Shown: positions 1 to 3,000 of the stretch, piece by piece
How positions within the stretch are numbered: the first letter of the stretch is position 1
How the letters are laid out: each line of letters opens with the position of its first letter
From: a virus
Taxonomy: Duplodnaviria; Heunggongvirae; Uroviricota; Caudoviricetes
IMG/VR virus record: IMGVR_UViG_2602041669_000023
Reading direction: 5' to 3' (one strand)
DNA: 8,544 bases
Program-made: the position numbers

Positions 1-3000
1 CAGCTCTTTCAGACGCTGACGTTCAGCGCTGGTGAGCCCACCATCACCGCCCCCGGTATCCCGCTCATGCTGGCGAACCCAGACACGCAGAGTCTCCGGC
101 GTACAGCCAATCTTTGGGGCAATGGAACAAATTGCCGCCCACTGTGAGTCATATTCATCCTGACTTTCCAGAACCATACGAATCGCCCGCTGACGGACTT
201 CGGGGGAAAAACGAGTATTTTTAGTCATCCTGTTTACCTCTTTCTCAGGGAGTTTAGTCTCCAGGATTTCCGGGGCGGTTCACAACAGCCTGGGCTATTG
301 GTCATGGTGTCAGATTTACCGACAGGAGGTACGAATGAGACGACAGCGACGAAGTATCACCGACATCATCTGCGAAAACTGCAAATACCTTCCAACGAAA
401 CGCTCCAGAAATAAACGCAAGCCAATCCCAAAAGAATCTGACGTAAAAACCTTCAACTACACGGCTCACCTGTGGGATATCCGGTGGCTAAGACATCGTG
501 CGAGGAAATGACAATGGATTATTCACAGTTAAGTGATTTTGAAATTAACGTGGCGGTATTCGAAGCCATTCATAACGGATCGCCGGATTACAAAGAAGGT
601 GAGAATGGCGATATGGTGTTTGTCTCATTTGAGGGAGACATTGTAAACGGAGACGCAGTTGAAGTAGAAGTTGAGCGCGGATCCTTTAACCCATGCGCAA
701 ACCCAGCAGACTCATGGCCGATTATTGAAAAATACAGGATTAGCATTATCAATCTCGATGAAGACGAGTGGGGTGCACGCGGTGTGGCCTACTGTAAATC
801 TAAGCGAGCTATACATGAAAATCCCCTTCGCGCCGCCATGATTGTCTTTCTCATGATGCAGAGAATCCAATAATGCTTAGCCCATCCCAATCCCTTCAAT
901 ACCAGAAAGAAAGCGTCGAGCGAGCTTTAACGTGCGCTAACTGCGGTCAGAAGCTGCATGTGCTGGAAGTTCACGTGTGTGAGCACTGCTGTGCAGAACT
1001 GATGAGCGATCCGAATAGCTCAATGTACGAGGAAGAAGACGATGAGTGATTACCTGAAATGGTATCTCTGCCACCGCTGGCTAATTAAGTTTGCTGTAAA
1101 AGACTGGATGACAGCGGATGCCAACAAACTTAAGCAAAGAAAGGACTATTACTACGCCAGAATGAAGGAAAACTACTGCTCAATTCGCACTCGCATATTT
1201 ATTAAAAAAGACCTTCAGTCAATTCTTCAATTGCGAGGGAAGGTAAATGGCTAACCTACGCAAAGAAGCGCGCGGCAGAGAATGCCAGGTACGTATTTAC
1301 GGCGTATGCAATGGCAATCCTGAAACTACAGTTCTGGCACATTACCGGATGGCTGGAATTTGTGGAACGGGGATGAAGCCTGACGACCTGATCGGCGCAT
1401 GGGCTTGTAGTGACTGCCACGCGGAGATCGACCGACGCACAAGGATTCTCGACAACAAAGACGCCAGACTTTACCACCTCGAAGGCGTGATCAGGACGCA
1501 GGCGATACTGCTGAAGGAGGGGAAGATTAAGTCATGAACGAATATCAGTTTGTGCTTCCATACCCGCCGTCGGTGAATACCTACTGGCGAAGACGGGGAA
1601 GCCAATACTACATCAGCGATAAAGGCCAGAAATACCGAAAAGACGTTCAGCAAATCATCCACCAACTCAAGTTAGATATTTTCACCAAATCACGACTCCG
1701 CATCAAAGTAATCGCAGACGTTCCAGACTCCCGCCGCCGCGACCTAGATAACATCCTGAAGGGTTTACTCGACTCCCTTATCCATGCCGGATTTGCGGAA
1801 GACGACGAGCAATTCGATGACATTCGCATAATTCGTGGTGTGAAAGTACCAGGCGGACGGCTTGGAATAAAAATCACCGAACTGGAGAACGCATGAACGC
1901 CACAATTCAAACGATACCAGAGCTTCTTATCCAGACACGAGGCAATCAGACCGAAGTGGCGAGGATGCTTTCCTGCGCAAGAGGAACAGTGCTCAAGTAC
2001 AACCGAGACAGCAAAGGCGAGCGTCATGTAATAGTTAACGGCGTCCTGATGGTCAAACAGGGCAAGAGGGGAAGACGATGAGACTCGAAAGCGTAGCTAA
2101 ATTTCATTCGCCAAAAAGCCCGATGATGAGCGACTCACTACTGGCCACAGTTTATTGGTTTTCGTAACTGAGTCATTTTATTATTTTATTGCAACTTTTA
2201 ATCTTTTATAGTGCGAAATAAATGGAGCTGGCATTCATTTCGCACTTTATGTTTTTGTTGGACTTATGTTATTTTGATTGAATTCAATTCAGTTAAAAAA
2301 AGAAGGTGATTGCTCCATTTATAAATGAATAGTCATCCCCTGTCTTGAATTCTGATGTTACTTTATTAAATGCTAGTGTGAAGGCTACAGGTGCATACCC
2401 AATTGTTGCGCCAACTTGATATTCATCAACAGTTTTGTTTAGCGATACTGTTGTTTGTTTCGTCTGTATTGTTTTTCCTTCGAGAGTATAGTTGCGATTG
2501 ACATCTCGTCTTTCCATACCTGCAAAAATCTTGTATTTGAATCCGCTTGTATCGGACATATGCATTAAACCACGGGGAGCCAGCAGACCAAAGCCATTAT
2601 CCGAATTGAAGGTTTTATCATTACCAATGGCAATGGTTGCGCCATATGCTACATATTGAAATAAGTTTCCAGTAACAGCAGAAACTTCAGGGTATAATCC
2701 AACATTAGCACCTAAAATATCCATACTTGGTGTCATGGATAGCATCCCTTTTACAGTATAACCGTAGCGATTCTCTATTTGATCATCCCATGCATGATAT
2801 TTTTCTGCCCCAATAATCTCATGAGCTTTATTTTGTACTTTCTGACCGCCTGCGTCGGGGCCAACAACACCTATGTCAGTACCTAATCGATAGCGAATCC
2901 AGTCATTCGCAAGGGAGTTCCATTCAATACCAGTGTGAGTGTATGCACTAAAAGCTCTGTCTCCAGTTACAGCTGTGTTGTGTCTTTTATTACTGCCTGA

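Follow-up and report, generated by a model that had tools for sequence, protein, structure and literature searches.

What is a short open reading frame (ORF) that begins exactly like the late-gene antiterminator Q of phage lambda doing at the end of the nin operon in a prophage that carries a different Q gene further along? The question is raised by IMG/VR virus record IMGVR_UViG_2602041669_000023, an 8,544-nucleotide (nt) stretch of DNA, here called the window, that represents the nin/late region of a lambdoid E. coli prophage. A preliminary description of this stretch, made by reading the sequence alone, had taken the ORF that directly follows ninH for the remnant of a lambda-type Q gene at a recombination breakpoint. 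Our analysis makes it highly probable that this ORF, which we call Q′, is a non-functional 5′ stub of a lambda-type Q gene, that it marks a mosaic joint of single origin, and that it later served as a passive patch for crossovers. The features that bear most directly on this conclusion are the following.

2078–2167, plus strand: Q′, a pseudogene, the remaining 5′ end of a lambda-type Q antiterminator gene (DNA alignment, BLASTP and public annotations)
1893–2081, plus strand: ninH, last of the intact nin (early right) operon genes, ending in a TGA stop codon (Pfam PF06322, E=2e-24)
2139–2156, no strand: junction zone of degraded Q similarity, 12 of 18 nt (test against an offset background, and alignments)
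2113–2145, minus strand: wreck of the paQ antisense RNA terminator stem-loop, equivalent to Q nt 36–68 (folding and the g341c annotation)
2067–2138, no strand: homology patch common to the left arm (N7/HK620-type) and the right arm (434-type), putative crossover site (overlapping matches)

Q′ comprises 29 codons and ends with a TAA stop codon at 2165–2167. As the preliminary description had it, the start codon directly follows ninH and overlaps its stop, forming ATGA at 2078–2081; the assignment of ninH was confirmed by its Pfam family. The description had also matched the first 20 codons to the lambda Q N terminus, and the alignments upheld this to the letter. Window positions 2078–2138 were identical to Q nt 1–61 at 61 of 61 positions in both lambda (NC_001416, Q at 43886–44509) and phage N7, so that the similarity over 2078–2137 on which that reading depended is present and exact. 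The lambda Q translation starts MRLESVAKFHSPKSPMMSDSPRATA, and residues 1–20 of Q′ were identical to it (20/20). A 61/61 nt match rules out chance resemblance. When the 29-amino-acid (aa) product of Q′ was compared with lambda Q by BLASTP, 22 of 25 residues were identical (E=3e-13). Q′ has retained the start codon of Q, the purine run GAGGGG upstream of it and the ATGA coupling to ninH. Its position is likewise that of a Q gene: it comes last in the nin operon, and its start codon overlaps the stop codon of ninH or, in other prophages, ninI; the intact Q genes of N7 and lambda also start 4 nt before the end of ninH or ninI.

Most of the gene is gone. Intact relatives have 207 codons, and 86% of the Q gene, with every part of known function, is missing from Q′. 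The PF03589 domain of lambda Q lies at residues 113–199 (193 bits, Pfam), and none of that region is left. With the ORF ending at codon 29, the domain that characterizes the lambda-type Q family, including its Cys-rich zinc-binding part, is absent, and the 29-aa product had zero Pfam matches. Downstream, where a Q gene would have its cognate late promoter, qut site and late operon, we found AT-rich DNA and then the 3′ end of lpxR, which is encoded on the opposite strand. Judged by these comparisons, Q′ as a protein falls outside the lambda-Q family, whereas as DNA it derives unambiguously from that family. An Rfam scan of 2078–2292 identified no RNA family, and a tRNA search of the window found none.

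Where does the similarity to Q end? The preliminary description stated that the frame diverges after codon 20 and stops after nine more codons in AT-rich DNA. The position of the stop codon and the AT-richness were correct, but the frame is not shifted past codon 20. Instead, similarity persists in frame: Q nt 62–79 (window 2139–2156) matched at 12 of 18 positions, compared with 4.3 ± 1.8 (maximum 11) at other offsets, and five of the six mismatches have a G or C in lambda and an A or T in the window. Further on, Q nt 80–130 gave a marginal match (18 of 51 positions, p about 0.03) and Q nt 131–200 matched at chance level; that the Q remnant reaches well past 2156 as heavily AT-mutated DNA is unproven. 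The guanine-plus-cytosine (GC) profile, proposed as a check in the preliminary description, drops at the joint, from ~50% left of 2100 to 32% in 2101–2300. Homology thus breaks off inside Q, as in a gene remnant, and the two sides have different closest relatives. On the alignments and the offset test, the non-homologous joint lies in or just after 2139–2156.

A regulatory element of the parent gene was lost as well. On the lambda minus strand, Q nt 36–68 form a hairpin (−27.6 kcal/mol, z=−4.3) followed by U5, and the phage g341c record annotates a stem_loop at the same Q positions as "Probably terminator for PaQ". Q antisense RNA and paQ are also described in the epsilon34 genome paper. The equivalent segment of the window gave −10.8 kcal/mol (z=+0.5); substitutions at 2139 and 2142, in the distal arm, abolish the fold.

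The two sides of Q′ resemble different phages: the left one is a nin arm of the P22/HK620 type, the right one is of the 434 type. To its left, Pfam and the RefSeq annotation of a near-identical prophage identify ninX, ninF, a small hypothetical protein, a YbcO/DUF1364 nuclease, rusA (1534–1896) and ninH. The ninH DNA is ~99% identical to ninH of N7 and ECP1, where an intact Q comes next. Indeed, N7, ECP1, HK620, HK97 and mEp phages (97–99% identity across ninH) encode a full 207-aa Q from the same ATG after ninH, and lambda has the same Q after ninI. To the right, phage 434 is 99.25% identical to the window over 2067–5914, and prophage Sp3 of strain Sakai matches from 2067 onward (99.7% over 2067–5303). 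These alignments located the module junctions that the preliminary description had proposed to map: N7 matches 1246–2148 and ends there, while the 434-type arm starts at 2067. The part of the right arm that concerns us here contains the following features.

2157–3582, no strand: low-GC (24–45%) lpxR block (GC profile and homology boundaries)
2210–2262, plus strand: hairpin (2210–2246) and U-rich tract, candidate intrinsic terminator of rightward early transcription (fold −16.4 kcal/mol, z=−3.0)
2293–3252, minus strand: lpxR, encoding lipid A 3′-O-deacylase, an outer-membrane beta-barrel, prophage cargo (Pfam PF09982, E=7e-40; annotated lpxR in Sp3, ECs_0814, and in phage 434)
3592–3714, plus strand: ylcG-like small ORF directly upstream of the functional Q (YlcG family in RefSeq and phage 434; DLP12-type homology from 3583)
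3729–4418, plus strand: functional late-gene antiterminator of the Q82 type (Pfam PF06323, E=1e-91; RefSeq and phage 434 annotate a 690-nt gene with an MNT... start)

The product of 3729–4418 matched PF06323 over its full length (306.8 bits, profile positions 1–216 of 220), and BLASTP detected no similarity between this Q and lambda Q, the two belonging to PF06323 and PF03589, respectively. On this homology, late-gene control in the window prophage is supplied by the PF06323 Q. A full-length lambda-type Q elsewhere in the prophage would have spoken against replacement of the original Q module; the window contains none, and the complete genome of phage 434, which has the same joint, matches the region at one place only. 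The preliminary description had suggested that the lambda-type Q module was replaced by a block carrying lpxR, a different Q-like gene and a membrane-protein gene. The full Q genes of the left-arm relatives and the unrelated PF06323 Q support this proposal, which nevertheless needs amending in two respects: the truncation predates the window prophage and the replacing block is composite.

To determine how widely the joint is shared, we searched 5,426 complete E. coli genomes with the flank at 2157–2800 as query. lpxR was present in 622 genomes, of which 620 matched at ≥99% identity from 2157 onward, and the full Q′-lpxR joint was found in exactly 620. The remaining two are plasmid copies (82% identity) whose match begins at the lpxR stop codon, so that they have none of the 2157–2292 flank. 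All 53 IMG/VR contigs with stub-specific sequence share the joint (30 behind ninI, 22 behind ninH and one cut at the contig end), and a metagenome scan for the downstream hairpin yielded seven true matches, all with the Q′ joint, and five chance matches. The lpxR block follows Q′ in every collection searched, and no homologue of it was detected elsewhere. The reverse situation, an lpxR flank without Q′ that could represent the donor context, was found in none of the E. coli genomes, species-representative genomes, or viral and metagenome collections. A distant BLAST search of 2139–2295 against phages returned only phage 434, and the homology of the only related locus in the species-representative genomes, in Citrobacter (73% aa identity), ends precisely at the stop codon. 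Judged by this distribution, the Q′-lpxR joint is old and arose once, and it is shared by the 620 E. coli genomes and phage 434. Because the joint is common to all of these, the truncation is not specific to the window prophage. A few viral contigs have a different Q allele behind the same Q′-lpxR, and on this comparison Q′-lpxR is the tighter unit.

The same joint occurs in two upstream contexts. The order rusA-ninH-Q′ was found in 189 complete genomes (O26, O111 and others) and the 22 viral contigs, and ninI-Q′ in O157:H7, phage 434 and the 30 viral contigs. In both contexts homology starts ~11 nt before the Q start codon and Q′ is identical, and intact Q likewise occurs after both ninH and ninI. 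Because the stub-specific bases begin at 2139, the crossover in the window must lie to the left of that position. The window prophage probably acquired its nin arm at a later stage, through a homologous crossover within the Q′ patch.

We therefore propose the following history. Non-homologous (illegitimate) recombination, or a deletion, would have broken a lambda-type Q gene within codons 21–27, and the broken end would have been fused to the AT-rich DNA 3′ of lpxR, ahead of a Q82-type module (ylcG, Q, late promoter, membrane protein and P21-type lysis genes). The rest of the lambda-type Q would be dispensable because the Q82-type module supplies late-gene antitermination. Transcription of the stub from pR, and its translation through coupling to ninH, are both probable and would give a 29-residue peptide, presumably without a role; such a peptide cannot provide Q function because it consists of 20 Q residues and nine junction-encoded residues and lacks the PF03589 domain. 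Having arisen once, the joint would have spread, and the stub appears to have served passively as a homology patch, since its first 61 nt stay identical to live Q genes. Phages with ninH-Q or ninI-Q arms could cross into the lpxR/Q82 arm through the surviving 61–72 bp, and the window prophage would be such a recombinant, with an N7/HK620-type nin arm and a 434-type right arm.

Several observations weigh against this account. No donor copy was found in any of the collections, which prevents a reconstruction of the original partner and of the exact break. Among the haplotypes of 46 viral contigs, the window and phage 434, 2078–3252 is almost invariant, with most of the variation in homopolymer length upstream of lpxR. 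This near-invariance could reflect constraint, although recent spread explains it equally well, and the haplotype analysis did not separate one crossover from several. Finally, uniform decay does not account for the contrast between 0 mismatches in 61 nt and 6 in the next 18. Either recombination with live Q genes has repeatedly refreshed the first 61 nt, or the joint lies at nt 61/62 and involved an unusually long imperfect microhomology; these two options are indistinguishable here. A donor natively holding a CTACTGGCCACAGTTTAT-like sequence would imply a microhomology-mediated joint at Q nt 61/62; otherwise, Q nt 62–79 would be decayed Q.

The same contrast bears on whether the stub has been kept for a use in cis. 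Q′ could be a portable homology adapter, or a coupled ORF that carries ribosomes past ninH to the 2210–2262 hairpin and thereby sets polarity or termination before the antisense-oriented lpxR. Perfect conservation of the 61 nt next to a segment with six changes would suit such a use, as would the presence of the same Q′-lpxR behind two unrelated upstream genes, the exact overlap of left-arm and right-arm homologies in the patch, and the hairpin and U tract 43 nt past the Q′ stop codon. However, crossovers in leftover homology are expected without selection, and all of 2078–3252 is nearly invariant, including its non-coding parts, which suggests recent spread and not constraint specific to Q′. 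Moreover, there is no variation with which to gauge selection, and the terminator is a fold prediction. We regard a cis use as improbable. Taken separately, the idea that the 61-nt patch is an effective, possibly selected recombination adapter, through which a phage with a lambda-type Q gains the lpxR virulence cargo and an alternative late-control and lysis arm by one crossover, strikes us as doubtful. If true, it would explain why lpxR is never found without Q′ and why, in prophages of enterohaemorrhagic and enteropathogenic E. coli (EHEC and EPEC), it lies behind at least two unrelated nin arms.

Could the 29-residue product itself be functional, for example as a decoy that interferes with the Q of superinfecting lambda-type phages? 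The signals for its translation have been retained (start codon, purine-rich run and ninH coupling), and the ORF has the same length in phage 434 and E. coli prophages. Yet only 20–24 Q residues are left, none of them from PF03589, and the tail is read from AT-rich junction DNA. In addition, 4 of the 53 viral contigs carry a Thr-to-Ile variant, and expert annotators label the ORF a fragment or pseudogene. A functional micropeptide is thus very unlikely. We give almost no credence to the idea that Q′ is a naturally short gene, or an N-terminal module shared by unrelated phage proteins, that never was truncated. Apart from the existence of an intact short ORF, nothing favours it: the 97 phage records that match this stretch, besides two 434 records, all match within a full-length Q or ninH, the DNA similarity runs in frame past codon 20 before it fades, and half of a regulatory hairpin internal to Q is preserved.

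The block that follows the stub resembles the cargo insertions, or morons, of lambdoid phages in composition. Its GC content (24–45%) contrasts with that of the nin genes (47–55%, 1201–2100) and of the Q gene to its right (43–51%). A promoter and terminator scan of the block found weak consensus matches only, no more than in shuffles. Expression of lpxR is Ler-dependent according to published papers. In DLP12-type prophages ylcG follows rusA, and homology of the window to their rusA-ylcG-Q modules (82–85%) starts at 3583, at the ylcG ribosome-binding site. Because both homology and GC content divide at 3582/3583, we consider the replacing block to be composite. A 3′ remnant of rusA upstream of ylcG was sought and rejected (local alignment, p=0.12 with DLP12-type rusA and p=0.48 with the window rusA). 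Between lpxR and ylcG, in DNA of 24–31% GC, lies an A7G8 homopolymer pair (3520–3534) whose length varies among near-identical viral contigs and phage 434; this variation could be sequencing noise or mark a slippage-prone tract.

The candidate terminator at 2210–2262 lies ~43 nt past the Q′ stop codon. Its interrupted stem of 14 bp is followed by UUUAUGUUUUUGUU on the early-transcription strand, and the lpxR strand has an A-rich tail. The hairpin was missed by a consensus terminator scan, which limited loops to 8 nt. If the fold prediction holds, the hairpin could stop unmodified rightward transcription before it enters lpxR in antisense, and N-modified polymerase would need to read through it to reach the Q82-type gene.

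How does the stub relate to what was known? Mosaic novel joints and morons of lambdoid phages are a general concept (Hendrix, Casjens, Juhala, Clark), and most lambdoid joints lie at gene boundaries. Like other novel joints and morons, the Q′ joint combines a sudden end of homology within a gene or at its margin with a shift in GC content and opposite-strand cargo between phage genes. Unlike most of them, it lies inside a gene and has left a recognizable stub, and the flanks of the lpxR block are adjacent in no relative that we found: none has Q′ or Q directly before ylcG. The moron concept also appears in PMC3594210.

The stub itself is already recorded, and it is a case of ordinary lambdoid mosaicism. 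In phage 434 it is annotated as CPT_434_64 (UMO75328.1, OL657226.1), an "antiterminator-like protein" with similarity to lambda Q (P03047), N-terminal fragment. Phage 434 shares with the window the 29-codon ORF, the Q′-lpxR joint and the order lpxR, ylcG, Q82-like Q and membrane protein. It differs in that the stub follows ninI (Ser/Thr phosphatase), that it has a single ATTTTATT and that it carries a SASA esterase. The window, the E. coli prophages and all 53 viral contigs have a tandem duplication of this 8-nt sequence, ATTTTATT-ATTTTATT, just past the Q′ stop codon (2175–2190 in the window). Feiss et al. 2022 (PMC9119081), who announced the phage 434 genome, do not discuss the fragment in their text. 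In NZ_CP148746.1, the RefSeq pipeline (PGAP) annotates the pseudogene WHU70_RS13625, "antitermination protein; incomplete; missing C-terminus", which covers the Q-homologous 72 nt. That prophage has an identical rusA-ninH-Q′-lpxR region, the only difference being an esterase segment further right that the window lacks. In Sp3 of O157:H7 Sakai, the order ECs_0813 (pphA/ninI)-lpxR (ECs_0814)-Q (ECs_0815) represents the same Q′-lpxR-Q82-type arm in the ninI context, with the stub unannotated. The intact Q genes of lambda (NP_040642.1, PF03589), N7, HK620, HK97 and ECP1 agree with Q′ in the place of the start codon behind the last nin gene and over the initial 61 nt and 20 residues; unlike Q′, they run to the full 207 codons with the Zn-finger/PF03589 domain, keep the paQ terminator hairpin intact and are followed by a late promoter. 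Literature searches found no published description of the stub, only the database annotations.

Downstream of the Q82-type gene the window continues with two further features.

4402–4495, plus strand: candidate late promoter and short-leader terminator, pR′/tR′-like (consensus matches only: promoter-like 4402–4430, hairpin 4464–4485 and T run)
4603–5346, plus strand: membrane protein gene of the 434-type late region (ORF; putative membrane protein in 434 and Sakai; no Pfam family)

The window has no other late-promoter-like site. Phage 434 has a terminator annotated at the place equivalent to 4464–4485. In the same phage record, the minus strand at the 3′ terminus of the Q82-type gene bears annotated CII-binding sites and a −35 element resembling that of paQ (6320–6333 and 6509–6522, approximately window 4395–4600). 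By analogy with the control lost with the lambda-type Q, the replacement module may bring its own antisense control of Q. Beyond the membrane protein gene, Pfam identifies DUF3927, a P21-type holin, a SAR-type lysozyme and Rz.

Two segments of the right arm resemble small RNAs (sRNAs). Positions 5601–5806 on the plus strand gave a full-length match to STnc100 that is below threshold (37.7 bits, the gathering score being 47; E=1.7e-5). According to a 2026 preprint (10.64898/2026.05.13.724894), the EPEC prophage sRNAs PasD1 and PasD2 are structurally related to STnc100 and in >98% of cases have a Q gene and lpxR no more than 10 kb away; 5601–5806 may thus represent a PasD-type sRNA gene. A 303-nt segment between DUF3927 and the holin gene (5915–6217) replaces ~2.27 kb of phage 434 and NZ_CP148746 that holds a SASA-family (sialate) esterase gene, and homology resumes at 6218. 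Within this segment, the minus strand at 5983–6072 matched the EHEC sRNA Esr41 weakly but over its full length (32.3 bits, the gathering score being 102; E=0.004), and the match ends in a hairpin and U run.

Both ends of the window show further discontinuities. CP148746-type homology ends at 8029, inside an ORF for a Rha-family regulator (7508–8152, PF09669 and ORF11CD3), and from 8113 an ORF that continues past the end of the window matches NleG, a family of type III effectors (PF06416, E=2e-26). A further cargo joint, truncating the Rha/antirepressor gene, appears to lie in 8030–8544. At the left edge, the best 434-type and CP148746-type relatives leave the first ~320 nt (1–320) uncovered, and the O26/O111 matches to this segment are in records that also list IS3-family transposases, which suggests another rearrangement or a joint associated with an insertion sequence.

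For annotation, these results mean that the ORF at 2078–2167 is a Q pseudogene and not a gene, and that the actual late antiterminator is the Q82-type protein encoded at 3729–4418. To a phage geneticist they would come as no surprise, nor do they open up a question of long standing. The stub is, however, a clean single-origin marker of the lpxR-carrying late arm of lambdoid prophages, an arm that about 11% of complete E. coli genomes carry, among them O157, O26, O111, O145, O103 and EPEC E2348/69. It also provides a small example of two processes: a non-homologous joint makes a new combination of modules, and the homology left over at the joint moves that combination between phage backbones.

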